DNA from: a virus
UHGV virus genome: UHGV-1558314
Length of the DNA stretch: 64,000 nt
Reading direction: 5' to 3' (one strand)
Part shown: positions 5,796 through 63,886 of the stretch, in pieces
How positions within the stretch are numbered: the stretch's first letter is position 1
How the letters are laid out: each line of letters starts with the position of its first letter
Program-made: the position numbers and the translations under genes
The notes under the pieces: model-generated
Told to the model about the DNA's origin: nothing
Databases searched by the model: none
Seen by the model: only the letters and a program-made list of their open reading frames with translations

Positions 5796-5846
5796 TATAT
5801 GTTGATATTGTACAACATGCAAAATGCACTTGCATTTTGATACAAC
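5796..5846 (-). promoter_or_regulatory. conserved intergenic motif copy 1 (putative promoter/operator) upstream of the Mre11-Rad50 gene
   Basis: tatatgttgatattgtacaacatgcaaaatgcacttgcattttgatacaac; contains palindrome TTGTACAA and inverted repeat CAAAATGCA-ct-TGCATTTTG; ends ~50 bp upstream of ATG 5775. Confidence 0.45.
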
Positions 5847-9572: not shown

Positions 9573-9623
9573 TATATGTTGATATTGTACAACATGCAAA
9601 ATGTATTTGCATTTTGATACAAC
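9573..9623 (-). promoter_or_regulatory. conserved intergenic motif copy 2
   Basis: tatatgttgatattgtacaacatgcaaaatgtatttgcattttgatacaac; near-identical to copy 1 (2-3 substitutions). Confidence 0.45.
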
Positions 9624-13181: not shown

Positions 13182-13878
13182 ATACTTTGCAATTATCTAT
13201 TACATGTTGATATTGTACTTCATCTATGATGTGATTTGCAATGACACCATATGAGGCGTCATACATTGGCATCTTCTCATATGACAATGCTGCGTCAAGA
13301 TTGCATATCACATAATTGCAATGCACAATGTCATCTACATTGTCACTAACTGCTACGATATTGACACACTTTGCAAGAAATGCATCATCAAAGTCTACTT
13401 GATTGCATGCAACCTCATAATCTGCTGCGCTTCTTGGGTACCAATATAACTCAATGCCAGCACTACTAAGTAGTCGCAAGCCATCTATGTGATGATACAA
13501 GTCAACAAAATGCACTTGCTTAACGCCTGCTTGCAAAATAAGCTTTGCGCAATCAATGCATGGACTGTATGTTACATACAGCACTGCGTCATTTGCGGTC
13601 GCATTGCCATATTTGCACAGCTTCATCAATGCGTTTGATTCTGCATGCAAAACTTCTTTGTTGGTTTTGATACCTGCCGATGTTGCATGCTCACAACAAT
13701 TTGACATGCCAGTTGGCATGCCATTGTAGCCATCTGAAATTATGCAACCATTTTTTACAAGCAATGCGCCAACTTTTGCTCGCTGAGCATATGAATTTAA
13801 TGACCAAAGCTCAGCCATTTTAAGATATATGAGATTTCGTTGAAACTGCTTTGTTTCAGACCAAGTTAGCCATTTCAT
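13153..13878 (-). CDS. dCMP deaminase (cytidine/deoxycytidylate deaminase family) with C-terminal extension
   Basis: Zinc-binding motifs VLHAESNAL (HxE) and SPCIDCAKLI (PCxxC). Confidence 0.85.
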   Translation of the reverse strand: MKWLTWSETKQFQRNLIYLKMAELWSLNSYAQRAKVGALLVKNGCIISDGYNGMPTGMSNCCEHATSAGIKTNKEVLHAESNALMKLCKYGNATANDAVLYVTYSPCIDCAKLILQAGVKQVHFVDLYHHIDGLRLLSSAGIELYWYPRSAADYEVACNQVDFDDAFLAKCVNIVAVSDNVDDIVHCNYVICNLDAALSYEKMPMYDASYGVIANHIIDEVQYQHVIDNCKVYEQTIHFEI

Positions 13879-15289: not shown

Positions 15290-15405
15290 AATATATTGTA
15301 CAACATGTATTGAGCTTTTGCACAACATATGTTGTTAAAATATCATCATTGTACAACATAAAGCGCATATTTGCACGTTGTGTTGCTAAAAATATTGTTA
15401 TTGTA
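15290..15405 (-). promoter_or_regulatory. cluster of three TTGTACA(A/C) boxes upstream of gene 13883..15265
   Basis: attgtacaacatg, cattgtacaacat, ttattgtacacaa within ~110 bp. Confidence 0.4.
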
Positions 15406-15440
15406 CACAAAACAAGCAGACTGCAATTGCAGTCTGCTTG
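15405..15440 (-). terminator. rho-independent terminator after gene 15488..16033
   Basis: Perfect 28-bp palindrome caagcagactgcaattgcagtctgcttg followed on the minus strand by TTTTGTG. Confidence 0.6.
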
Positions 15441-15487
15441 CACTTGTTATTAACCCTTAAAATCAATGACACTATGTCAATGTCATT

Positions 15488-20487: not shown

Positions 20488-20567
20488 GACATGACTTGTT
20501 AAATGAAAAGAGGCTCAGACAAACAATGTCTGTCTGAGCCTCGAGCATCTTTGATGCGCTTGTACTG

Positions 20568-21701
20568 CTACTTGAGCCCATTGATGAATGCTTCAGTTTC
20601 AGCATCCATCGTTGCTGCTGCAGGTGCTGCTGCTGGAGCTGCTGCAGGTGCAGGCTCTGCTGCAGGTGCTGAAGCTGCTGCAAACGGGTCAATAGCTGTC
20701 TGAGCTGCTGGTGCAGTAGCAGGCGCAGCTGCCGGAGCTGCTGCAGGTGCAGGCTGAGTAGTCTGTGCCTGCTGAGCTGCTGACGAATTGATGACAATGT
20801 CAGGCCAGATATCCGACACATCCTTGTAGTTAGCAAGGCGCATCTTAACCTGACGCTTGATGTCATCAGAAGCTTCGTGGTAGCCCCACTCCTTTTCGAC
20901 ATTCGGGTACTCCTTGAGCATGTCGACAATCTGCTGCATGATTTGCTGCTTGTATGCAGGGTCAGTGTCATACTTCGCCTGGTCAACAAGGCTGCCATCT
21001 GCAAGCAGCATCGACGATACGTTGGGCGAAATCGTCGAAGTCTCGTAGTCACGCATTTCAACGCCATTGACGTCTTTAAGCGTAATCTTCAAGAGAATGT
21101 CGTGGCCCTTAACAGGATGGAACATGTCCATAGGCTGAGCGCCCATTTGGATGTCTTCGTCGGTCGGCTTCATTGAGCTCAGCATTCTTTTATACAATGC
21201 AGCAGGGAGTCGATATGGGAGTACTTTCCCAACGTTCTCAGGGTGCACTGAATCAGCTTTGATTTGCACGAGGCAAGTGTACTGACTCTGCATACTGAAC
21301 TCTCGCTTTGCAAGCGCTTCCTGCTGAGCATCCTTGGTATTGATGAGTTCCCAGTAGAACGCCGAAATGGGGCACCAACCGTAGGGTTTCATCAAATTTT
21401 CCGGATTTTCAGGATGCGGATTAGGCGAGCTCGGCGAATTGTAGCGGAAGCCCTGATTATGGCCAGTTGCAAACCAGTAATAACGAACGATTGAAATCGG
21501 TACTGCTGGGTCTGCTAAATTCGGCAATACGCGAATAACTGCACGATAAACTTTGTCCTTTGGCGAATCCTGCGGCTTAGGATTGAAGAACTCAGGTCCT
21601 GCAGAACGTTCCGGCTTAGCAAAGCTTGCTACATTGTCCGGCTGGACATCAAAGATTGACAGCGGCTGATTACCGGTCTGTCCATTTTCAATTTGTGACA
21701 T
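20568..21701 (-). CDS. hypothetical protein with C-terminal Ala/Pro-rich low-complexity tail
   Basis: Canonical ATG at 21701; C-terminus APAAAPAAAPATAPAA...APAAEPAPAAAPAAAPAAA encoded by GCTGCTGCAGGTGC-type nucleotide repeats. Confidence 0.5.
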   Translation of the reverse strand: MSQIENGQTGNQPLSIFDVQPDNVASFAKPERSAGPEFFNPKPQDSPKDKVYRAVIRVLPNLADPAVPISIVRYYWFATGHNQGFRYNSPSSPNPHPENPENLMKPYGWCPISAFYWELINTKDAQQEALAKREFSMQSQYTCLVQIKADSVHPENVGKVLPYRLPAALYKRMLSSMKPTDEDIQMGAQPMDMFHPVKGHDILLKITLKDVNGVEMRDYETSTISPNVSSMLLADGSLVDQAKYDTDPAYKQQIMQQIVDMLKEYPNVEKEWGYHEASDDIKRQVKMRLANYKDVSDIWPDIVINSSAAQQAQTTQPAPAAAPAAAPATAPAAQTAIDPFAAASAPAAEPAPAAAPAAAPAAATMDAETEAFINGLK

Positions 21702-21787
21702 CGCAATAAATTTTTAGAAAGTTTAACAAAAAGTTTGAAATGAACTCTTCAGAAAATCTTCAGAAGTTTATTTGTTATTTGTATATG

Positions 21788-21838
21788 TATTGTGCAACAT
21801 GCATATTCATATTGTATATGAATATGATACAACATGCG
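21788..21838 (-). promoter_or_regulatory. motif variant with 10-bp inverted repeat, upstream of gene 20568..21701
   Basis: tattgtgcaacatgc...atattcatat-tgt-atatgaatat...gatacaacatgcg. Confidence 0.4.
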
Positions 21839-21852
21839 AATATCATTTGCAC

Positions 21853-22989
21853 TTATCTTGCATGACCGCAATCGTACACTGCAACATAACCAGCATCAAT
21901 CATAGTCTGTTCATCTTGACCACAGTCTTCAATGTGCTCTTTTGTCTTCAAATGACACCAGTGCTTACGAATTGTTGACTTGTCATCTGACAGTTGCGGA
22001 TTGAGCACAAAATCAGTTGAGTCTACTTGTTCACCTGCAAGATGCTTTCTAATGGCGTCAATGACTTCGTTGTCATCCATCCATTCGAATATTGTAATGC
22101 AAGTGTAGCCATGTTTGAGAGCAAGTTGAGCTTTGTCGAAGTGGTAGAATTTGCCAACTGGCTTATTGTGTTTTGTGCGCCCAGTTAAATATGCAAAGCC
22201 ATATGTTGCATTGTGTGACCAAAGAGGATTAACTTCAATCAAAAGTTTGCAGTGTTCATTACAATAATCAAGGTCATATGACCATCGTCCAAGATTGACA
22301 TTATCAAGCCCGCAATCAATACCAAGTTCTTGCAGCAATTTGTCATGCCACCAATGGTTTGTTTGCGATTTTATATGACCTTGAGCATTACGGCATTTAG
22401 TAGTCATACAAAACCATGGCACACCATGTCGTTCCATATTGACTTCTTGAACGCGTTCAAGATTGCCGCTCTTATTGCCATAACGTTGCTGTTTTGTTTG
22501 CAATGCAGCATCAATATTGCCCCATGCATTGCCATATCGTTTTACAACAGTTTGTCTACGTTTTTCAACATCACAGCACTTATTGCCATATTTACGCAAT
22601 TTAGTGTCAAATGCTTTTTGTGTATTGCCTACGCCACGTTTGACCCATTTGCGCTCTTTGCCTTGTTGACATCGTTCTTGGTTACCCCATGTGCTGCCAT
22701 ATCGTTCTAAATTTGTTTGTCTACGTTTTTCAACATTGCCTGCTTTGCATCCATATCGTGCTAAATTTGTTTGTTGTTGTTTAGCTACGCAATCTTTGTT
22801 ACGTGCAGGAAATTCAACGCCTAATGAACGTAGACAGCCAATTCTACGATTATAATTACGTTTAATATTGCCGTGTGATGTTTTACAAGGCCCATATCTT
22901 ACAAACTCAGTTGTTCTCAACAACTCATCTCGCTCTTGCTCAAGCTCTGCAATGCGCTTCTCAAGAGCTTCACCAGTTAGTGGCGTCAT
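21853..22989 (-). CDS. homing-endonuclease-like protein: tandem ~20-aa RYG-x4-GN repeats plus Vsr/DUF559-like (PD-(D/E)xK) nuclease domain; paralog of 63182..63886
   Basis: About 7 repeats (NLARYGCKAGN, LERYGSTWGN, LRKYGNKCCD, VKRYGNAWGN, QQRYGNKSGN, MERHGVPW); C-terminal DLDY...KLLIEVNPLWSHN...LALKHGYTCITIFEW. Confidence 0.5.
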   Translation of the reverse strand: MTPLTGEALEKRIAELEQERDELLRTTEFVRYGPCKTSHGNIKRNYNRRIGCLRSLGVEFPARNKDCVAKQQQTNLARYGCKAGNVEKRRQTNLERYGSTWGNQERCQQGKERKWVKRGVGNTQKAFDTKLRKYGNKCCDVEKRRQTVVKRYGNAWGNIDAALQTKQQRYGNKSGNLERVQEVNMERHGVPWFCMTTKCRNAQGHIKSQTNHWWHDKLLQELGIDCGLDNVNLGRWSYDLDYCNEHCKLLIEVNPLWSHNATYGFAYLTGRTKHNKPVGKFYHFDKAQLALKHGYTCITIFEWMDDNEVIDAIRKHLAGEQVDSTDFVLNPQLSDDKSTIRKHWCHLKTKEHIEDCGQDEQTMIDAGYVAVYDCGHAR

Positions 22990-25913: not shown

Positions 25914-26837
25914 TTACATTGAGATGTTAAGAATTCGCTTGACTACAGAATCGATATCATTGTTTGCAGCATTGCACAGTTCCATGCGAACATTAGAATC
26001 AATGAACAAGTTATGAAACGTTGACGCAGCTTGAACAAGATGACACCAGATTGCTCGTCTACACATTGCAAGTTCTCTGTCAGCTTTGCTGCATTGCATG
26101 AGATACGAGTTTGCTCTATCACTGTAATATGACTGAGCATACTTGCATTGACGTTCAGCGTCATTTACAATGTACATGTATGGAGTCTTGACGTCAAAGT
26201 AAATTTTGCAATACAATGACTTGTCATCAATTGCAAAGTCATCAATATTGACAGTCAAATCTGTCATTGCATACGTCAAACCTCTGTCATGCAAATATGC
26301 AAACATTGCAGTATAGCATTGATGCAATGTAGCAATCAATTCACATTTGTCAGTTGACTGAACAACTTTGTATGCTGCTTTGATTGCCTTTGCATATATG
26401 AGCTGCAAACACAGCTCTTTGCGACGCAATGCTTTGCGTTCAAATTGTCGCTCATATTTGATGTGCTTACGTATGCGTTTGCGTTCTGTAAGCAATTTCG
26501 ACAAGTCAATACGAATGTATTTTGATACATTTGTAACAGCGGTGTCAATACTGTGCCACTGTTCAATGTCGTCAATGTCAAGTTCATGCGCAAGTGAATG
26601 TGACACTCTGCCGTACATGTATAAGACTTTGCAGTTGTCATCGCATAATGCATACATACACCATGATGACAGTTCAATGTCATGCTCAAATGTGGCAAAA
26701 TCAACTTCTACTGCAATATTTGCGTTTGTGCATATGCATTTTTGAATGTCAATGTCACTTAAGTACCACTTGAAAAATGAATCGACTTCTGCAGAATGTT
26801 GACTTATGATGCGCTTGAACAGCTTGTTCGATTTCAT
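25914..26837 (-). CDS. hypothetical protein
   Basis: 307-aa ORF. Confidence 0.45.
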   Translation of the reverse strand: MKSNKLFKRIISQHSAEVDSFFKWYLSDIDIQKCICTNANIAVEVDFATFEHDIELSSWCMYALCDDNCKVLYMYGRVSHSLAHELDIDDIEQWHSIDTAVTNVSKYIRIDLSKLLTERKRIRKHIKYERQFERKALRRKELCLQLIYAKAIKAAYKVVQSTDKCELIATLHQCYTAMFAYLHDRGLTYAMTDLTVNIDDFAIDDKSLYCKIYFDVKTPYMYIVNDAERQCKYAQSYYSDRANSYLMQCSKADRELAMCRRAIWCHLVQAASTFHNLFIDSNVRMELCNAANNDIDSVVKRILNISM

Positions 26838-27950: not shown

Positions 27951-28015
27951 TGTTGTAGAGGTTTGTATACTATATTGATATATGATAATTGTACTACAAA
28001 TTTATCAAATTTGCA

Positions 28016-28133
28016 CTGATTTAATATATAATATGTCAATAAATTTCACATATAAAGTCTTTTCGCTTATGAAAACTACTCAACTCTGGTTTGAACGCCA
28101 GCAGTCAATCGCGGGGGGGCTCTTCGTGACACA
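28016..28133 (+). repeat. promoter/leader module, copy A (inverted partner at 31048..31160)
   Basis: About 113-118 bp near-identical to the reverse complement of 31048..31160, with 2-3 mismatches/indels by eye in the upstream part; contains ATG 28069 and G7 tract. Confidence 0.8.
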
Positions 28134-28769: not shown

Positions 28770-28804
28770 GTGTACATATCTTACAACATTCAAACATATA
28801 GCAT

Positions 28805-28858
28805 ATGAAAACTCCACAATTTTGGTTTGAGCGTCAACAAGGGCTAGCGGGGGGGCTC
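28805..28858 (+). repeat. diverged third copy of the leader module
   Basis: atgaaaactccacaattttggtttgagcgtcaacaagggctagcgggggggctc versus copy A; upstream part not conserved. Confidence 0.6.
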
Positions 28859-28861
28859 TAA
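28805..28861 (+). CDS. leader ORF copy 2 (MKTPQFWFERQQGLAGGL*) with G7 tract
   Basis: ATG 28805; G7 at 28849-28855; stop TAA at 28859-28861; about 75 percent nt identity to leader copy 1. Confidence 0.3.
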   Translation: MKTPQFWFERQQGLAGGL

Positions 28862-29351: not shown

Positions 29352-29390
29352 AATGCTCCACTGAGAAATCTCAGTGGAGCATTTTTTGTG
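29352..29390 (+). terminator. rho-independent terminator between convergent genes 28899..29327 (+) and 29412..29822 (-)
   Basis: 14-bp stem aatgctccactgag / ctcagtggagcatt, loop aaat, then TTTTGTG on the plus strand. Confidence 0.65.
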
Positions 29391-30017: not shown

Positions 30018-30094
30018 TATCAAAACAACATCTTAGTTGTTTTGCATCTTGCATCAAAACAACATCTTAGTTGTTTTGCATCTTGCATCAAAAC
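30018..30094. repeat. tandem direct repeat, 34-bp unit x2.3, each unit with a 9-bp-stem hairpin
   Basis: tatcaaaacaacatcttagttgttttgcatcttg / catcaaaacaacatcttagttgttttgcatcttg / catcaaaac; internal inverted repeat caaaacaac-atctta-gttgttttg. Confidence 0.8.
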
Positions 30095-30269
30095 TCATAG
30101 GCATTGCATTCAAAGATGAAGATTTTACAGCAGACATTGCACTTGATAACGCGTCATTTTATGATGGCCAAACTGCATGGCTAACTGGAAAGCTTCTGGC
30201 AGCATTGTGTTAAGTATAAAACAGTTACATTGAAAGCTAACACAACAGTAAACATCGCCATTTAATGCA

Positions 30270-30315
30270 CATCAAAAACTCCACTGAACAATTAAGTTCA
30301 GTGGAGTTTTTGATG
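30270..30315. terminator. bidirectional hairpin terminator downstream of gene 30332..30985
   Basis: catcaaaaactccactgaac-aattaa-gttcagtggagtttttgatg; stem flanked by A5/T5 so either strand reads hairpin plus U-tract. Shares core CTCCACTGA with the 29352 hairpin. Confidence 0.6.
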
Positions 30316-30331
30316 TGTAGTGTGCAAAATA

Positions 30332-30985: not shown

Positions 30986-31047
30986 AGTCGCATATGCAGC
31001 TTCAAGTAGTGAACCATCTGCTTTGTTGATAGTGCCGCTGATAATAG

Positions 31048-31160
31048 TGTCACGAAGAGCCCCCCCGCGATTGACTGCTGGCGTTCAAACCAGAGTTGAG
31101 TAGTTTTCATAAGCGAAAAGACTTTTTGTATGTGAAATTTATTGACATATTATATATCAG
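31048..31160 (-). repeat. promoter/leader module, copy B (inverted partner of 28016..28133)
   Basis: Reverse complement reads ctgatatataatatgtcaataaatttcacatacaaaaagtcttttcgcttATGaaaactactcaactctggtttgaacgccagcagtcaatcgcgggggggctcttcgtgaca. Confidence 0.8.
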
Positions 31161-31258: not shown

Positions 31259-31873
31259 TTACGATACAGTCCACGGGCAGTTTGCGGTAACCGTAACCGT
31301 AACGGCAGGAGTACCGGCCTGAGGAATCGTGATTTCCTGCTTGTCGAGTACCAGCGTCGGGTCACCAGCAGCCTGAACGATTGCAATCTGAGCAGTCTGG
31401 GCACCGTTGGCAGTTACCAAAATCGATGTCGTGCGCTCGTTAATCGTCAAGTTGGCAGGAATGTCAAGCTCAATGCTGAAAGCAAACTCGGCGTTGGCAC
31501 CAGGGTCACCAGTGATTGCTACGCCATTGTTGGTTTCTACACCAGCAACTGCGTACTTTTTAGGCAGTTCGATAACAAACTCGCCGCCCTCAACGATGCT
31601 GAACGTCAGCTTCGATGAGTTAGATACACCGGTTACGGTAAGAGTACCGCCAGCTTTAGGAGCTGACATCTCTGAGCCGTTGTCAAATGACACGAACTCA
31701 GCCTTTGCAGTCTGCTGTACATTGTACGTTGAAGGCGCTGCAATACCAGCACCCTGAACGGTTACAACACCAGTACGTGCAATACGACCAGTGTGGGCGT
31801 CAGCAGAGTTGGAAATTGAACCATTACCCGAACCAGATGTCGGGCTAAGTTTCAACCATGCGGGTTTAGCCAT
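31259..31873 (-). CDS. BACON-like domain protein
   Basis: N-terminus MAKPAWLKLSPTSGSGNGSISNSADAHTGRIARTGVVTVQ fits the BACON pattern (W..s..sGsG.g......R.a.itv) as recalled from memory; paralog of the two downstream genes. Confidence 0.5.
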   Translation of the reverse strand: MAKPAWLKLSPTSGSGNGSISNSADAHTGRIARTGVVTVQGAGIAAPSTYNVQQTAKAEFVSFDNGSEMSAPKAGGTLTVTGVSNSSKLTFSIVEGGEFVIELPKKYAVAGVETNNGVAITGDPGANAEFAFSIELDIPANLTINERTTSILVTANGAQTAQIAIVQAAGDPTLVLDKQEITIPQAGTPAVTVTVTANCPWTVS

Positions 31874-32531: not shown

Positions 32532-32602
32532 TGTTACTGTGCAATTTTTAATTGTTTGACATGATATTTATATGCATTGCTTAAGCAATGTTGAATTGAC
32601 AT

Positions 32603-35600
32603 TTATCGAACAAGGAATGATGTACCAACAACCATATTCGGGATTGCCAAGCCATTGCCAGACTGGCTTACTGCAACTGTGCCACTTGTGTAGCCTGACA
32701 ATGCAGCAGTAATTGTTGCCGACCTGCTGTTATCTGAACCCCAGTTGTTTGCAGCTGACAATGTCGAACCGCTGATTGTGAATGCACCATTGTTCGATGA
32801 GTACGTTGGAGTAACCGCAGCATCTGATGTTGTAGACTGACCTGTCGTGTACTTTGTGACAGTTCGACCTGTCGTAGACAATGTTGCAGTGCCACCAGCA
32901 GCCCCAAAGCTTGTAACAGTTGAGCTGACAATCAGAGTCTTCGTAGTCGAAGTCACACTGTTGGCTTCCTGTGTAGCAGTGATTGCTTTTGAGCCAGTTT
33001 GACCATTCAACGCAACCGTCATATTGACTGTAGCGGTTCTTGCAGAACCAGCAGTTGTGCCACGATTTGCAGCAGTCAATGAACCGGTTGTACTACTGTT
33101 AAGCGTAAAGCCAGTAGTTGTAGCCATACTGTATGAAATTGTACCGCCAGATGTAATAGTAGTTTTTGAACCACTTGTGTACGTTGCTGTCTGCGAGTAT
33201 GCTGGCGTGCCTGTTGGAGTCTTTGTTGCACCTGCTGCAGCAAATGTTGCATATGATGTTGCTGTAGTAACTGTGACTGCGCTGTATGATACACTGTTAG
33301 CTGCTTGATAAACATCAAGAGCTTTTGTAGCAGTCTTAGACCCTTCACCAGTAGCAGTTGCAGTCAAAGTGCCAATCTTTGTACGAGCTTTGACTGTAGT
33401 GCCAAGCGATGATGCGCTGACTTTTGTGCTATACGCAATGCTAACTGAACCTGGCCTTGTGCTGCCAGACGTATATGTAATTGTCTGTGATGCACTGATG
33501 CCAGACATTGATGCAACTTCACCGCCACCAGCAGGAATATCTGACACAGTTCCACCAGAAATTGTAACCGCGCCATATGTCGTAATTGCATTTGCAGCTT
33601 GGTACACATCGACTGCTTTTGTTCCAGATTTGCCATTGACTGTTACTGTAACAGTAGATGTTGTAATCTTTGTGCGGGCTTTAGCAGTAGTGCCAAGTGA
33701 ACTACCAGACACTGCGCCAGTAGACGTTGTTACACCAGTGCCAGACCATGATTTGCTGCCACCAGACGTAACTGTCTGTGTTGAGCCACTTGACCACATA
33801 ACTGATTGACTGAATGACACTGAAGGCGTAACTGAGCCACCCTTTGCAGGAACATCGCTATAAGTCATCGAAACTGTGGGCGTACCATATGTAGCAGCAT
33901 TAGCATTTTGAGATGCAGTAGCAGTCTTTGTTCCACTGATGGCTTTTGTGCCTGCAGCATTGTATGACGCAGTAGGCGTCCATGTAGCTGTTACAGTCTT
34001 TGTGACTGTCAGCGATGTAGTTGCGCCACTTGCAGTAGTGCCTTTTGATGATGCGGTTATAGCACCAGTAGATGTATTGAGTGCAGTGAACAATCCTGAT
34101 GCGCCTGGCCAACTATATGATGTTGTAGTTGACAATGAACCATACGTAGATGCTGGCGCAGTAGTTGAAGTACTGCCACTACTAAAATGGTATGTTACTG
34201 TGTTTGCACCATTTGACGGTGTAGATGTTCCGCCACCTGCAGCAATTGCAGGATATGACATCGAACCAACTGCAATATTGAGTGCAGTCACATAGTTGCC
34301 TGCCTGATAAATCGTGGCAGACTTGCTGGCAGATTTGCCATTCATTGTGACTTTAACAGTCAGTGTGCCTGCAGTAGTCTGGTTAGATATTGCGGTGTCT
34401 TTTGATTGCGCAGTGACTGTTGACGTATACTCAATTGTTCCGCCGCTTGTCAGTGTTTCTGTCGTCTTTTCACCAGTAGCATATGTCGTAGTTTTGACCT
34501 GCGAGTAAGTTACTGTGCCAGATTTTACAGAACCTCCGCTTGCTGCAATGATAGTTGCAGACGGCGTCAAGTTAACTGTGATATCGCTATATGTAACTGT
34601 GCCAGCAGATTGAGCTGCTTGATAAACATCTGCAGCTTTTGATGCAGACTTGCCATTGAGTGCTACTGTGACAGTCAATGTGCCAATCTTTGTTCGTGGC
34701 TTAACTGTTGTGCCAAGTGATGATGCAGTGATACCTGCTGCTGGACTGTATGAAATTGTTGCACCAGTAGTGATGTTCTGTGTTGAAGTTGATGTGTATG
34801 TTGCAGTCTGCGAATATGACACATTGCCGCTCTTAATTGTACCACCAGTTACAGGAATATCTGCTACAGTGAAGCTTGAAATTGTAACTGCGCCATATGA
34901 CACAGTGTTTGCAACTTGCTTGACTGTGCAAGAACCAGTTTTTGTAACACCGCCCTCAGTATATGAGCCAGAAATTGTAATGCTGCGTTCTGCGCCTACG
35001 ACTGTTGTGCGATTTGCTGCAGTTACTGTAGCAGTCGACAATGTAAAGCCAGTTGCTGAACCGCTAAGTGTTGCAGATACTGCAGCAGATGACGTTGAGC
35101 CTGATGCATATGTGTATGACGCTGTTGAAGTGATTGTAGTTGAACCGCCACCAGCTGCCAATGTTGCAGCGCCAGGTGTCAATGTCAAGCCATTCAGCGT
35201 CTTTGAGTTTGCAGTTTGTGTTGCAGTAGCAGTTTTTGTAGCAGACTTGCCATTGATTGCTACCGTAACTGTGACAGCATTTGAAGCATCAGTAGAGCCT
35301 ACATATGATGTGCCCATTGACGTTACAGTCAATGCGCCACTTGTCGTATTCAATGTCCAGCGTGACTTAGCAGTCATTGCATAAGACAATGTAGCGCCAC
35401 TTGTCAATGTGCCACCTGAGCCAGCTACGCCATTCCAAGTCCAAACTTGTGAATATGAAACAGTTGGGTTTGATGTACCACCAGCAGGAGCAATGTTAGC
35501 ATATGAGAATGTTCCAATGACAGGCGTTGCATAGACTTTAGCACCTGCAGCTTGGTTGAACGTAATATCTTTTGATGCAGACTTACCATTTGCAGTGACT

Positions 35601-36931
35601 GTCAAGGTGACAACAAACCCATTACGTGCAACAGTAGAATTGTTGTTTGTCACTGTGACATTCAAGCCAGACAAGCTGTAGCCTGTTGCAGCAGTTTTGA
35701 CGGCAGCAGTCCATATGCCGCCTGACGTGTTACTATCAGTTGAGCCGCTGCTGTATGTCATTGACTGCGTAAATGTTGCAGATGCATTAGCTGCAACAGT
35801 TTGACCTGCTACTGCAAGAGCAACTGGTGTTGTCTTTGTAATGACTGGTGTGCCGTATGTAATGCTGTTGGCTGCTTGTGTAATTGATACAGTAGCAGTT
35901 GCATTGCCATATGACGCTGTGCCGCTAAATGACCGAGCATCACCGACAGTCTTACCACGATTTGCAGATGTTACAGAATTTGCAGATATTGTAAAGCCTG
36001 TTGCAGTGCCTGTAATTGTTGGCTTGACATTTGTTTCAGTAGATGTAACAACACCGTTCCATGTCACAGTGTACGTACCAGTGATGGTTGATGTTCCACC
36101 TGCTGCAGTATGACTTGTTGAATATGTGTTCAAAGCAAGTTTGTACACAACTGAACCTGCAGCTTGTGAGCATTTAACGGTCTTCGATAATTCATGACCA
36201 CTTACAGTCAGTGTTGGTGTAACTGCTGCAGTTGACGTGTTGTTCGGTGTATTGACAGTGATTGTTGCAGGACCTGTGCCAGATGCTTTTGAGACTGACC
36301 AACCTGCAGGTACGCCCGAAATTGTCCATGCAAAGTCAGGATTACAAGAAATTGCGAATGTCTTCGATTCACCCTTTGCAACAAATGACAAAGTTTCTGG
36401 TGATACTGCCAATGTTGCACTTGCACCAGCTTGATTTACTGTAAATGTTGCAGACTTGCCACCAGGCGTTGACAATGTGAAAGTGAATGCCTTTGCAGCG
36501 ATTGCAGTATGTGCAGCAATCTGCACTCGTACAATGACTTCAAATTCTGCATTGACACCAGGGTCATTGTCAAAATTTGTATTAAGCGCATAATCTTTGC
36601 TTGCAACAGTTACGCCAAGCACTGTGCCACTTGCAGTACCGCCAGTACTGCCAAGCACAAGTTTTTGTGCATTTGTGACACATTTCAATGTTGCAATAGT
36701 GCCACCATTTGACGCAATGTTTGTAGATGCAACTGTAGCTCGTATAGTTTCACCAGGAGACTCTTGCAATACTGCACAGTTTTCAGTTACTACTGGTGAA
36801 CCTGTAGTTGTTTGCGCAGTAAAGCTGCCAGACCTGTTATTTCGACCAGTATGCACAGATGCTTTGACAGACAACTGTGAGTTGCCTGTGCCAACATCAG
36901 GTGTAACTGTCAACCAAGTAGGCTTTGCCAT
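32603..36931 (-). CDS. giant Thr/Ser-rich repeat protein with N-terminal BACON-like domain and many tandem Ig-like repeats (probable fibre/adhesin)
   Basis: N-terminus MAKPTWLTVTPDVGTGNSQLSVKASVHTGRNNRSGSF; repeated ~90-aa units ending NGKSASK....YQAAN. Confidence 0.6.
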   Translation of the reverse strand: MAKPTWLTVTPDVGTGNSQLSVKASVHTGRNNRSGSFTAQTTTGSPVVTENCAVLQESPGETIRATVASTNIASNGGTIATLKCVTNAQKLVLGSTGGTASGTVLGVTVASKDYALNTNFDNDPGVNAEFEVIVRVQIAAHTAIAAKAFTFTLSTPGGKSATFTVNQAGASATLAVSPETLSFVAKGESKTFAISCNPDFAWTISGVPAGWSVSKASGTGPATITVNTPNNTSTAAVTPTLTVSGHELSKTVKCSQAAGSVVYKLALNTYSTSHTAAGGTSTITGTYTVTWNGVVTSTETNVKPTITGTATGFTISANSVTSANRGKTVGDARSFSGTASYGNATATVSITQAANSITYGTPVITKTTPVALAVAGQTVAANASATFTQSMTYSSGSTDSNTSGGIWTAAVKTAATGYSLSGLNVTVTNNNSTVARNGFVVTLTVTANGKSASKDITFNQAAGAKVYATPVIGTFSYANIAPAGGTSNPTVSYSQVWTWNGVAGSGGTLTSGATLSYAMTAKSRWTLNTTSGALTVTSMGTSYVGSTDASNAVTVTVAINGKSATKTATATQTANSKTLNGLTLTPGAATLAAGGGSTTITSTASYTYASGSTSSAAVSATLSGSATGFTLSTATVTAANRTTVVGAERSITISGSYTEGGVTKTGSCTVKQVANTVSYGAVTISSFTVADIPVTGGTIKSGNVSYSQTATYTSTSTQNITTGATISYSPAAGITASSLGTTVKPRTKIGTLTVTVALNGKSASKAADVYQAAQSAGTVTYSDITVNLTPSATIIAASGGSVKSGTVTYSQVKTTTYATGEKTTETLTSGGTIEYTSTVTAQSKDTAISNQTTAGTLTVKVTMNGKSASKSATIYQAGNYVTALNIAVGSMSYPAIAAGGGTSTPSNGANTVTYHFSSGSTSTTAPASTYGSLSTTTSYSWPGASGLFTALNTSTGAITASSKGTTASGATTSLTVTKTVTATWTPTASYNAAGTKAISGTKTATASQNANAATYGTPTVSMTYSDVPAKGGSVTPSVSFSQSVMWSSGSTQTVTSGGSKSWSGTGVTTSTGAVSGSSLGTTAKARTKITTSTVTVTVNGKSGTKAVDVYQAANAITTYGAVTISGGTVSDIPAGGGEVASMSGISASQTITYTSGSTRPGSVSIAYSTKVSASSLGTTVKARTKIGTLTATATGEGSKTATKALDVYQAANSVSYSAVTVTTATSYATFAAAGATKTPTGTPAYSQTATYTSGSKTTITSGGTISYSMATTTGFTLNSSTTGSLTAANRGTTAGSARTATVNMTVALNGQTGSKAITATQEANSVTSTTKTLIVSSTVTSFGAAGGTATLSTTGRTVTKYTTGQSTTSDAAVTPTYSSNNGAFTISGSTLSAANNWGSDNSRSATITAALSGYTSGTVAVSQSGNGLAIPNMVVGTSFLVR

Positions 36932-36986
36932 TTTATGTCGTTTTGTTATTTTCTGTGATATTTACACACACAATGTAACTTGCATT

Positions 36987-46987: not shown

Positions 46988-47884
46988 TTACAGTGTTCCG
47001 CAAAGCAATTCACGTAAATCCATGCCGGCTTGTGTACTGTACTGAGCAATAAGATTACGTTCTGAATCAGACATACTCCAATAAATCTTATGCAGAGCTC
47101 TACGAATAATAGTATGAATGCCAGATGTGCTACAATTGAACTTCTTTGCAAGTTCTGCATGAGTTAACAAATCAGCATCGCCAAGGCCATACACATGTGT
47201 GAGTACAAGCTTTTCATTTTGAGTGAGTTGTTCAAATGCTCTTTGCAGAATCTTTGTGATACGTTTGTGAGCATCTTCGATTTCAAGAACTTCTTGGCCT
47301 GTTTTGAAGTCTGACCTCAAATCATTCTGAACTGGTGACCATGCGTCACCATCTTTGTCAAGTGTAGTGTCATCCTTGCTGATGAATTGCTTGCCTTCAA
47401 GAGCTCTTTCATATGCTCCACGAATACCAGTAGATAATTGTTGACTTGTCAGATTGAGTTCGTCAAGCACATATTTCTTAATCCAAGGATATGCATATGT
47501 GCTAAACTTTGCTTCACGAACTCCTGCAGGCAATACGCCTTCTACGTAATTCTTGGCTGCTATTGACAATCCAAGATTGCCTGCTTGAATGACGTCATCA
47601 AATGGAACCGAGCGTTTGCCAGATGCGAACCATAAGCTTCGTGCAACTGATATGACCAATCTTAAACAAGATTTGATAAGAGCTTCACGATTTTCTTGAG
47701 TCTTCTTGAATCGAGTAACATCACAATATCGCTTTGCAGTAGCCAGCGATTTGACTTCTTCAGGAGTAAGCTCATTCTCCATCCTCATTTGCTTGAGCTC
47801 TTCCTTTGTGTATAGACGTTCTCTTGTGATTCTACCTACGTCCTTTACGTAGCCTTGATTGATTTGTGAATTTGAACCTGCCAT
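46988..47884 (-). CDS. sigma-70-family RNA polymerase sigma factor
   Basis: Region-2-like LRLVISVARSL...FDDVIQAGNLGLSIAAKNY; region-4 helix-turn-helix LTQNEKLVLTHVYGL...LTHAELAKKFNCSTSGIHTIIRRALHKI. Confidence 0.75.
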   Translation of the reverse strand: MAGSNSQINQGYVKDVGRITRERLYTKEELKQMRMENELTPEEVKSLATAKRYCDVTRFKKTQENREALIKSCLRLVISVARSLWFASGKRSVPFDDVIQAGNLGLSIAAKNYVEGVLPAGVREAKFSTYAYPWIKKYVLDELNLTSQQLSTGIRGAYERALEGKQFISKDDTTLDKDGDAWSPVQNDLRSDFKTGQEVLEIEDAHKRITKILQRAFEQLTQNEKLVLTHVYGLGDADLLTHAELAKKFNCSTSGIHTIIRRALHKIYWSMSDSERNLIAQYSTQAGMDLRELLCGTL

Positions 47885-50738: not shown

Positions 50739-50810
50739 TATATTGTACAATATGCAAAGTGCTTTTGCACTTTGATGCAAAGTACTGCGTACACAACATG
50801 CAATGTATAA
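50739..50810 (-). promoter_or_regulatory. motif variant with inverted repeat CAAAGTGC-tttt-GCACTTTG, upstream of gene 50145..50723
   Basis: tatattgtacaatatgcaaagtgcttttgcactttgatgcaaagtactgcgtacacaacatgcaatg. Confidence 0.4.
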
Positions 50811-63181: not shown

Positions 63182-63886
63182 TTATATATTTGACAACTGT
63201 TTGCGTTGTAAAATTGCATGACCGCAGTCATATACTGCAACATAGCCAGCATCAATCATCTCTTGCTCATTTTGTCCGCAGTCTTCAACATGTTCTTTTG
63301 TCTTCAAATGACACCAGTGTTTGCAAATAGTTGACTTGTCATCTGACAATTGTGGATTGAACGCGAAGTCAGTTGAGTCTACTGGTTCGCCTGCAAGATG
63401 CTTTCGAATGACATCGATGACTTCATTGTCATCCATCCATTCAAATATTGTTATGCAAGTGTAGCCATGCTTAAGAGCAAGCTGAGTTTTGTCGAAGTGA
63501 TAGAATTTGCTAACATGCTTATTGTGTGTAGTACGGCCAATTAAATATGCAAAACCATATGTTGAATTGTGTGACCAAGTTGGATTGATTTCAATCAATA
63601 ATTTGCAATGTTCATTACTGTAATTGAGGTCATATGACCATCGCTCAAGATTGACATCATCAAGCCCACAATCAATCCCAAGTTCTTGCAGCAATTTGTC
63701 ATGCCACCAATGGTTTGCTCGTGATTTTACATGACCTTGAGCATCACGACATTTAGCAGTCATACAAAAATATGGGACACCATAGCGTTGCATGTTAGTT
63801 GACGCAATTTTTTGCAAATCGCCTGCAGCAGACCCATATTTTTGTCGTTTTGTTGCAACTGCTACTGCAATATTGCCAAATGACAT
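63182..63886 (-). CDS. homing-endonuclease-like protein (short RYG repeats plus Vsr/DUF559-like nuclease domain); paralog of 21853..22989
   Basis: C-terminal ~170 aa are about 90 percent identical to 21853..22989 (WWHDKLLQELGIDCGLD...KLLIEINPTWSHN...); two QKYG/QRYG repeats at N-terminus. Confidence 0.5.
   Translation of the reverse strand: MSFGNIAVAVATKRQKYGSAAGDLQKIASTNMQRYGVPYFCMTAKCRDAQGHVKSRANHWWHDKLLQELGIDCGLDDVNLERWSYDLNYSNEHCKLLIEINPTWSHNSTYGFAYLIGRTTHNKHVSKFYHFDKTQLALKHGYTCITIFEWMDDNEVIDVIRKHLAGEPVDSTDFAFNPQLSDDKSTICKHWCHLKTKEHVEDCGQNEQEMIDAGYVAVYDCGHAILQRKQLSNI

Follow-up and report, generated by a model that had tools for sequence, protein, structure and literature searches.

The intergenic region at 21.8 kb of this phage genome carries a perfect inverted repeat set between direct repeats, and further palindromes and repeated boxes lie in other intergenic regions, among them those at 15.3 and 50.7 kb. 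A preliminary description took these for operator-like variations on the theme of a 50-bp element that may form a regulon; whether they are binding sites of one shared regulator, or accessory parts of a repeated element of another kind, is the question that this locus raises. The window analyzed here (the whole stretch of 64,000 nucleotides) is part of an uncultured gut phage genome of ~175 kb, and near-identical genomes of ~175 kb were found in gut metagenomes. It has a GC content of ~0.40, carries nearly every ORF on the minus strand, and is 6% non-coding. The first 28 kb hold a T4-like replication and nucleotide-metabolism gene set, whose products include an SbcC-like nuclease, a beta-glucosyltransferase-like protein, dCMP deaminase, thioredoxin, a UvsW/DEAD-type helicase, and a gp32-like single-stranded-DNA-binding protein (SSB); virion proteins (baseplate wedge, head closure, tape measure) are encoded between 32 and 63 kb. 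No close relative was recovered among cultured phages (a megablast search of 20–24 kb against INPHARED returned 0 matches), and no record identical to the window's SSB protein was found. The nearest relatives, at ~30% protein identity, are the Chryseobacterium phages MA9V-1/2, Tenacibaculum phage PTm1, Sphingomonas phage PAU, and some huge metagenomic phages. Rfam (gathering threshold) and tRNA scans of the window likewise gave 0 matches. The host is probably a member of the Bacteroidota, given that no Shine–Dalgarno motif precedes any of 58 genes, that one window protein contains a BACON domain, that the samples are gut metagenomes, and that Chryseobacterium and Tenacibaculum are hosts of its nearest cultured relatives; absent Shine–Dalgarno sequences are a known trait of Bacteroidetes (PMC7366714).

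The elements themselves are largely as first described. The 21.8-kb palindrome (catattcatat-tgt-atatgaatatg) is present with its flanking caacatgc boxes (21795–21802 and 21830–21837), though its arms are 11 bp long and not 10; the 50.7-kb palindrome, CAAAGTGC-tttt-GCACTTTG in the plus-strand reading, adjoins TTGTACAA at 50743–50750, and the three TTGTACA(A/C) boxes begin at 15296, 15349, and ~15397. Shuffled-sequence controls gave palindrome densities well below those observed, and the observation therefore stands. Over the whole window, nine perfect inverted repeats (arms ≥11, loop ≤8) were counted against 0.53 expected from 60 dinucleotide shuffles; pooling all intergenic regions gave 11 inverted repeats with arms ≥8 against 1.0 expected, several of these being ordinary terminators. 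Locally, an 11-bp arm arose in 0.15% of 2000 dinucleotide shuffles of the 151-nt intergenic region at 21.8 kb, and in 0.8% of shuffles of its AT-rich 71-nt core. The palindrome at 5.8 kb is comparably unusual (P=0.0085, local shuffles), the 8-bp palindrome at 50.7 kb is marginal by itself (P=0.06), and TTGTACAA occurs 8 times against 2.6 expected.

Read on the minus strand, which is the coding strand here, the 21.8-kb palindrome sits between two promoter-like cores, P1 and P2, that lie 35 bp apart (Table 1). P1 begins right after the TAA stop codon of the upstream homing-endonuclease-like gene. The left arm of the palindrome opens within the CAT of P1's −10 box, the right arm stops exactly 7 nt before the P2 −10 box, and the −35 element and spacer of P2 are built from palindrome sequence. 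Promoters of the P1 type occur singly in one relative (L050), and the P2 core matches the single promoter of others (L001 and L054–57). Most likely, P1 and P2 are a tandem promoter pair serving the gp32-like SSB gene downstream. The caacatgc and TTGTACAA boxes were also considered as operator half-sites in their own right and were rejected: on the minus strand caacatgc reads GCATGTTG, TTGTACAA is the junction of TTG and TACAA, and both are the −10 hexamer with its upstream extension, read on the non-coding strand.

Table 1. Features of the 64,000-nt window discussed in the text; sequences are given in the minus-strand reading unless marked otherwise.
Feature	Position	Strand	Details
Cassette upstream of SbcC-like nuclease gene	5807..5846	-	Degenerate core 1 GTTGTATCAA; palindrome CAAAATGCA-ag-TGCATTTTG 5820–5839; TGCAA-N17-TACAAT 5807–5834
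Near-identical paralogous cassette	9584..9623	-	Palindrome 9597–9616 with one arm mutated
TTGCAA-N18-TACAAT	13212..13241	-	At 3' end of dCMP deaminase ORF, 33 nt before next start codon
Three tandem promoter-like cores	15295..15408	-	15397–15408, 15348–15375, 15295–15322; equal to the three TTGTACA(A/C) boxes
T4 gp32-like SSB gene, 377 aa	20568..21701	-	phrog_224; PF08804 in homologs; tblastn to T4 gp32
Long SSB leader	21702..21788	-	Conserved stem CTTCTGAAGA..TTCTGAAGAG (21745–21766), then A+T-rich tract with TTAAA up to ATG
Putative promoter P2	21789..21817	-	ATACAA 21812–21817 at −35; 17-nt spacer ending GCATGTTG (21795–21802); CACAAT 21789–21794
Perfect palindrome CATATTCATAT-aca-ATATGAATATG	21802..21826	.	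11-bp arms, 3-nt loop; plus-strand form catattcatat-tgt-atatgaatatg
Putative promoter P1	21824..21852	-	GTGCAA 21847–21852; 17-nt spacer ending GCATGTTG (21830–21837); TATCAT 21824–21829
TGCAA-N17-TACAAT	27988..28015	-	Upstream of 103-aa gene absent from relatives L054 and L055
Phage-encoded sigma-70-family factor, 298 aa	46988..47884	-	Regions 2 and 4; phrog_351 E=4e-26; PF04542, PF04545; SigA/RpoD matches in PDB
50.7-kb cassette	50742..50800	-	Core 1 CATGTTGTGTACGCA 50786–50800; palindrome CAAAGTGC-aaaa-GCACTTTG 50755–50774; TGCAA-N17-TACAAT 50742–50769

What the sites at 21.8, 50.7, and 15.3 kb share is a bipartite motif on the coding strand, nTGCAA-N17-TACAAT, with CATGTTG directly before TACAAT. 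Seven exact matches to TGCAA-N17-TA[CT][AC]AT occur in the window against 0.92 expected, a count reached by none of 100 shuffles, and all seven lie on the minus (coding) strand in intergenic sequence, with none inside coding sequence. An eighth copy has an 18-nt spacer (13212–13241) and a ninth is P2 at 21.8 kb. The −10 box lies 21–40 nt before the start codon (21 nt before the ATG at 50.7 kb), or about 120 nt in the case of the SSB gene, whose leader measures about 80–120 nt. In an alignment of 12 copies from the window and its relatives (alignment A2), TGCAA and ATGTTGTA..AT form invariant columns, and the motif also precedes the SSB and thioredoxin genes of relatives with only 58–60% SSB identity. 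The motif belongs to a larger minus-strand cassette of 50–70 nt, which consists of an optional first core (..GTTGTATCA(T/A)), a short inverted repeat, and CATGTTG-TACAAT, the nTGCAA element being almost invariant 17 nt upstream of TACAAT; at 5.8 and 9.6 kb, the CA of the degenerate first core GTTGTATCAA opens the left arm of the repeat. These cassettes precede early/middle genes. The earlier claim that the three sites are variants of the 50-bp repeat family holds on this alignment and on the repeat families D2, D7, and D9. Of the proposed regulon, the part that stands is the shared bipartite motif: because they have this one conserved motif in common, the three sites are plausibly one co-regulated promoter class, though their inverted repeats do not amount to one operator.

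Two conserved boxes 17 ± 1 bp apart, a −10 hexamer resembling TATAAT, placement upstream of genes in the same orientation, and depletion from coding sequence are together the signature of a promoter class with sigma-70-family −35/−10 geometry, and from this signature we infer promoter activity. The consensus itself is unusual. GTGCAA agrees with the Escherichia coli −35 box at only 3 of 6 positions, and a generic E. coli-type sigma-70 promoter scan gave 46 sites where 50 were expected, hence no enrichment, and did not pick the family out. The primary sigma factor of Bacteroides recognizes the motifs TTTG/−33 and TAnnTTTG/−7 (PMC7366714); neither the Bacteroidota TAnnTTTG element nor the T4 late motif TATAAATA was enriched upstream of window genes. 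The TGCAA/TACAAT consensus thus fits neither E. coli sigma-70 nor the TTTG/TAnnTTTG promoters of Bacteroides, the host itself being presumed.

The window encodes its own sigma-70-family factor (Table 1), with homologues in MA9V, PTm1, and PAU, and no RNA polymerase match was found within the window. Large phages of “group 2” in the T4 superfamily are reported to lack an RNA polymerase of their own and to encode sigma factors, some of them near RpoD (PMC7824862). Because the motif is unlike the consensus of the Bacteroidota host, the phage sigma factor is a candidate reader, and it may recognize the TGCAA-N17-TACAAT promoters.

The palindromes behave differently from the promoter boxes. An anchored scan of copies from the window and its relatives found perfect stems of 6–11 bp (P≤0.03 against shuffles) between −40 and −18 in window copies at 5.8, 9.6, 50.7, and 21.8 kb (P2) and in copies from relatives (L030, the 9.6-kb ortholog; L001-15.3b; L054-SSB; L001-SSB; L047a; L047c). 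The commonest stem end point lies 7 nt before the hexamer, a register shared by the 21.8-, 5.8-, and 50.7-kb palindromes and by several copies in a related IMG/VR contig, though loop size (2–4 nt) and stem ends shift by a few nucleotides between copies. Statistics were taken copy by copy, since arms and loops stand in slightly different registers in alignment A2, which precluded one consensus structure. Arm sequences change from copy to copy yet remain complementary: CAAAATGCA/TGCATTTTG, CAAAGTGC/GCACTTTG, CAAATGCA/TGCATTTG, and CATATTCATAT/ATATGAATATG, with further pairs AAGTGCA/TGCACTT and CATTGCA/TGCAATG. Across paralogous copies such changes run from AATGCA/TGCATT, AGTGCA/TGCACT, and TTGCA/TGCAA to the unrelated AT-rich arms at 21.8 kb. 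Arms that change and yet still pair favour the view that hairpin potential, more than a protein half-site, is what selection or a mutational process acts on. About one third of the copies, that at 13212–13241 included, have no significant stem while keeping both promoter boxes. The 9.6-kb palindrome, imperfect in the window, is perfect in its ortholog L030, and single substitutions break the stem in one member of each of three close ortholog pairs (window 9.6 kb and L030, window 15.3b and L001, and L001 and L054 at the SSB site); because such substitutions break stems between close relatives, the constraint on pairing is weak.

Comparison of strains points the same way. Three alleles exist at the SSB site: L050 has one promoter only, with TATCAT; L001 and L054–57 also have just one, with TACAAT; and the window and L058–63 have the tandem arrangement with the palindrome. 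Relatives with 95–97% SSB identity retain the gene, leader, and a single promoter while the 21.8-kb palindrome is absent; L001 and L054–57 have a different small palindrome there, TGCAAAA-gta-TTTTGCA, and in the tandem allele of L058–63 the outermost palindrome pair is mismatched (ATACG for ATATG). At 50.7 kb, L064 retains ATGCAA-N17-TACAAT with the 8-bp palindrome replaced by one of 5 bp in another register. The order and number of promoter modules at 15.3 kb differ in L050, and the −35/spacer half has been replaced in L030 at 5.8 kb and swapped at 50.7 kb as well. Across orthologous sites in relatives that are 79–97% identical, palindromes are lost or replaced and the promoter boxes stay: the constant features are the two boxes, and the palindromes, on the sequences compared, are a recurrent, fast-evolving accessory.

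These comparisons bear directly on the idea that the 25-bp palindrome is an operator, bound by a dimeric phage or host regulator that switches transcription of the SSB operon, with the other palindromes belonging to the same regulon. The palindrome is perfect and statistically unusual, and it covers the P1 start region and the −35/spacer of P2, such that a bound protein would occlude both promoters; moreover, a fixed dyad, TGCAA-N7-TTGCA, recurs between −34 and −18 (at 5.8, 9.6, and 50.7 kb of the window and at the L054 SSB site). Against this, the arms ATATTCATAT, CAAAGTGC, and CAAAATGCA are unrelated from site to site, and loop and register vary, which is not what one shared operator predicts. 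The half-site ATATTCATAT occurs exactly only in the palindrome and once more, unpaired, just past the −10 box of a 15.3-kb promoter, leaving the window with no second paired copy, and no half-site is common to the promoters that would be regulated. A symmetric change of both arms would also be unexpected for a protein half-site. Nor are the palindromes conserved at orthologous promoters of relatives (SSB: L050, L001, L054–57; 50.7 kb: L064), even those with 95–97% SSB identity. Scans of 60 window proteins against PHROG and Pfam gave no DNA-binding regulator other than the sigma factor, though most proteins have no family match and a regulator may be among these. Because the palindrome is absent in close relatives and the window has no second paired half-site, a common operator is unsupported, and we consider an operator of this kind quite improbable.

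A palindrome that comes and goes among strains could also be a neutral by-product, in which a 35-bp duplication, recombination between promoter alleles, or a replication template switch placed an inverted copy of ancestral promoter-proximal sequence next to the original, with no function resulting. The left arm, ATTCATATA, is indeed ancestral sequence found just downstream of the −10 box in L051 and in the window's 15.3c promoter, so that the right arm alone is new in the tandem allele; the SSB site is polymorphic, with its three alleles, and the outermost pair is already mismatched in L058–63. The hairpin is also thermodynamically weak: as RNA, the AU-rich 21.8-kb stem folds at −9.4 kcal/mol, which corresponds to z=−1.2 when the 41 nt are dinucleotide-shuffled for comparison. 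Template-switch correction of quasi-palindromes can keep arms complementary without selection. Such an origin nonetheless leaves unexplained why many paralogous cassettes, far more than in shuffles, have a palindrome in one common register although its arms are unrelated, and why two or more diverged lineages (the window and L058–63) have kept the allele with tandem promoters and palindrome. A purely neutral origin is thus possible but, in our estimation, rather unlikely.

A third alternative treats the repeats as DNA that acts through its structure and not as conventional promoters, either as extruded hairpins like those through which the virion RNA polymerase of phage N4 recognizes early promoters or as iteron-like origin or recombination sites. 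The inverted repeat does hold its position while its sequence changes, and the 2–4-nt loops, stems of 7–11 bp, and flanking direct repeats resemble those of hairpin promoters. Yet the window yielded a sigma factor and no phage RNA polymerase, the loop and stem bases are unconserved, and the third or so of copies that are stemless still have both promoter boxes. For origin sites, it is awkward that all copies are oriented with the genes, at short, gene-appropriate distances from start codons, and that GC skew shows no switch at the cassette sites. Structure-dependent sites of this sort appear very improbable.

The cassette stems also differ from intrinsic terminators, which combine a GC-rich stem with a U-tract; the palindromes have neither. 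With folding energies of −5 to −13 kcal/mol (z −0.4 to −3.1), these stems are short and rich in AU, and no U-tract follows them. A terminator scan called true terminators at 15412–15441 and 20510–20542 and did not call the 21.8- and 5.8-kb palindromes; the 50.7-kb palindrome lies outside the range of that scan, and by eye it is followed by CATATTG with no T-run. Canonical GC-rich terminators lie separately upstream of the 15.3- and 50.7-kb cassettes, the core at 15397–15408 coming directly after the terminator at 15413–15440. Summed over 22 copies, folding of the sense strand (−153.5 kcal/mol) shows no clear difference from that of the antisense strand (−140.3 kcal/mol), in a comparison aimed at telling an RNA role of the stems from a DNA role. 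Any terminator activity of the cassette stems would be weak.

Of the explanations considered, the one we favour, with some confidence, is that the palindromes are probably variable stem-loops within a repeated promoter cassette, similar to known cassettes of T4-type phages and shuffled by recombination among strains, and are not a shared operator. With a sigma-70-type factor, perhaps the phage sigma, RNA polymerase would start transcription ~7 nt downstream of TACAAT. At 21.8 kb, a tandem cassette (P1 with TATCAT, P2 with CACAAT) would drive the gp32-like SSB operon, the palindrome being the stem-loop of the second cassette. By analogy with those cassettes, the stem-loop might serve as a weak attenuator or 3'-end structure that damps read-through from the upstream gene (the homing-endonuclease-like gene at 21.8 kb), and might likewise be a recombination hot spot promoting exchange between cassettes, as opposed to a sequence-specific operator. 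Promoter modules have been exchanged or reordered at four loci (21.8, 15.3, 5.8, and 50.7 kb). The only gene-content difference examined beside a cassette, an indel of the 103-aa gene at 27.6–27.9 kb, is not flanked by two cassettes; this indel arose between short similar gene starts.

The known cassettes in question are the PeSLs (promoter-early stem-loops) of the T4-type phages RB49/phi1, PST, and nt-1 (Arbiol et al. 2010, PMC2839356; Comeau et al. 2014, PMC4122927). These are repeated intergenic elements in which a sigma-70-like promoter is combined with a stem-loop that in most cases overlaps the −35 and −10 boxes or lies in the stretch separating them; they have been shown both to promote and to terminate transcription, and recombination at these points shuffles genes among closely related phages (PMC2839356; PMC4122927). 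PeSLs and the window cassettes have in common a repeated intergenic unit of ~50–100 bp, a −35/−10 promoter with a stem-loop, variable sub-positions, a T4-like replication module, and, for the promoter modules at least, exchange between close relatives, and the pairing of a repeated intergenic promoter with an adjacent or overlapping stem-loop was found here in D2, D7, and D9 (four copies in the window and six in relatives). However, the two share no sequence homology. The window stems are AU-rich around TGCA and lack a U-tract, whereas PeSL stems are polyG/polyC; the window promoters depart from the host sigma-70 consensus and perhaps depend on a phage sigma, whereas PeSL promoters are host-read “early” promoters. 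The window cassettes precede conserved replication genes (SSB, SbcC-like nuclease), in contrast to the mainly orphan genes behind PeSLs, and neither mini-circles nor a gene indel between two cassettes were seen here.

Closer in some respects are the internal-protein loci of T-even phages, where weaker AT-rich stem-loops on phage-specific promoters have been described as PeSL analogues (PMC2839356). According to that description, these hypervariable loci have weak AT-rich stems of variable size and promoters that, like those of the window cassettes, do not follow the host consensus, though promoter sequence and phage group differ. The window cassettes also bear some likeness to T4 middle promoters. 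The latter consist of a MotA box at −30 and a sigma-70 −10 box and precede replication genes, gene 32 included. Both have a non-canonical upstream box (TGCTT in T4, TGCAA here) and a −10-like hexamer, a likeness that serves as a lead only; no MotA/AsiA homologue was found here, and the upstream box lies at −35, with a 17-nt spacer.

Taken in this context, the window cassettes are elements of a familiar type, found here in a phage lineage that is new. They extend a T4-type design, a promoter with a built-in stem-loop that is exchanged among strains, to a distant lineage, and they offer a promoter consensus that can be tested, together with a candidate sigma factor, for a widespread uncultured ~175-kb gut phage lineage that probably infects Bacteroidota, the transcription signals of Bacteroidota phages being poorly known. 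For annotation, recognizing the cassette keeps these palindromes from being labelled operators or terminators. The more interesting point is whether the phage sigma imposes a promoter specificity foreign to its Bacteroidota host. A stronger proposal would hold both that TGCAA-N17-TACAAT is the specificity of the phage's RpoD-like sigma, foreign to the TTTG/TAnnTTTG promoters of the host, and that the co-varying stem-loop in the −35/spacer region has a structure-dependent function, either in promoter control or in the shuffling of promoters by recombination, and is not a passenger; that both halves would hold together seems unlikely at present.

Two further observations concern the surroundings of these cassettes. 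A scan of IMG/VR for TTTGCATRTTRTACAAT returned mostly single chance matches, several matches occurring together only in one related contig of 174.6 kb. Downstream of P2, the SSB transcript would begin with a long leader (Table 1), the layout of which was compared with that of the T4 gene 32 translational operator (PMC3014915).

The leader of the T4 gp32-like single-stranded-DNA-binding protein (SSB) gene contains two conserved boxes, CUUCUGAAGA and UUCUGAAGAG, that are able to pair around a loop ranging from 4 to ~22 nt in relatives at 58–97% identity; no covariation was seen in this stem among the same relatives. Downstream of the stem, an A/U-rich tract with UUAAA reaches to the AUG. In the autoregulatory operator of T4 gene 32, a structure lies ~67 nt upstream and A+U-rich repeats of UUAAA come after it (PMC3014915); the predicted stem and A/U-rich UUAAA tract of the SSB leader are similar to it in layout. 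The heptamer AAATAAC, present in ~2 copies in the window, has grown to ~5 tandem copies in the SSB leader of one strain lineage (assemblies L058–L063).

Four Logan contigs (L058–60 and L062) start at an identical base within P1, one of the predicted SSB promoters, and assemblies thus apparently break at the repeated promoter-like cassette (TGCAA-N17-TACAAT with a variable stem-loop). The polymorphic SSB promoter is immediately preceded by the homing-endonuclease-like gene at 21.9 kb, which is missing from a relative at 76% identity (L051) and shares ~580 nt at its 3′ end, at 88% identity, with the 3′ end of its paralogue. Promoter allele diversity at the SSB gene might derive partly from co-conversion during homing.

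Coordinates of features in the window
Feature	Position	Strand	Remarks
SSB gene leader	21702-21788		stem at 21745-21766
AAATAAC expansion (L058-L063)	equivalent to 21766-21780		upstream of SSB gene
Homing-endonuclease-like paralogues (n=2)	21853-22989, 63182-63886	(-)	phrog_3339
Paralogous gene starts with common leader (n=3)	28024-28132, 28801-28859, 31047-31157		locus 28.0-31.2 kb
Strong inverted repeats	29352-29383, 30021-30078, 30268-30317		hypervariable locus
BACON-domain protein	31259-31873
TAAATATCA	32562-32570, 36956-36964	(-)	upstream of two large virion genes
1442-aa protein gene	32603-36931	(-)	without family match
Phage-encoded sigma-70-family factor	46988-47884	(-)	regions 2 and 4; inside virion-gene block

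In the hypervariable locus, the conserved leader common to three paralogous gene starts encodes MKT(T/P)Q(L/F)WFERQQ..AGG, which we take to be reminiscent of the T4 internal-protein capsid-targeting sequence, and ends 3′ in a run of 7 G. Each leader is out of frame with the long ORF behind it (233, 173, and 259 aa), both in the window and in the independent assemblies L001, L037, L054, and L056; these ORFs can be reached from the leaders only if one G is gained or lost. This pattern points to the G-run as a possible site of slippage or phase variation; alternatively, the leader may be an upstream ORF. A second copy of the promoter and leader is inverted (86 nt, 97% identical), and the genes between the inverted arms vary from strain to strain. 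The locus also contains inverted repeats with 15-bp arms in one case and 22-bp arms in another, and two identical 9-bp-arm hairpins, CAAAACAAC-atctta-GTTGTTTTG, spaced 34 nt apart.

The 133-nt region upstream of the sigma factor gene carries direct repeats of ATGTGACAA, and TGCAA-N17-TACAAT is absent from it. A separate late-promoter motif resembling the T4 late −10 box may be represented by TAAATATCA, which has just two instances in all; the instance at 32.57 kb forms part of TATAAATA. Across the whole window, none of 58 gene starts has AGGA, GGAG, or GAGG within 20 nt upstream, which, together with the encoded BACON-domain protein, is consistent with a Bacteroidota host.

A ~775-bp segment (26038–26813) within a 307-aa ORF (25914–26837) is missing from L001, L037, and L054–56. 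The 1442-aa protein gene contains several internal repeats with a period of ~300–1000 nt (repeat families D4, D6, D10, and D11), and the SSB gene carries tandem repeats of the GCTGCTGCAGGTGC type at its 3′ end (20601–20755), which encodes the C-terminal part.
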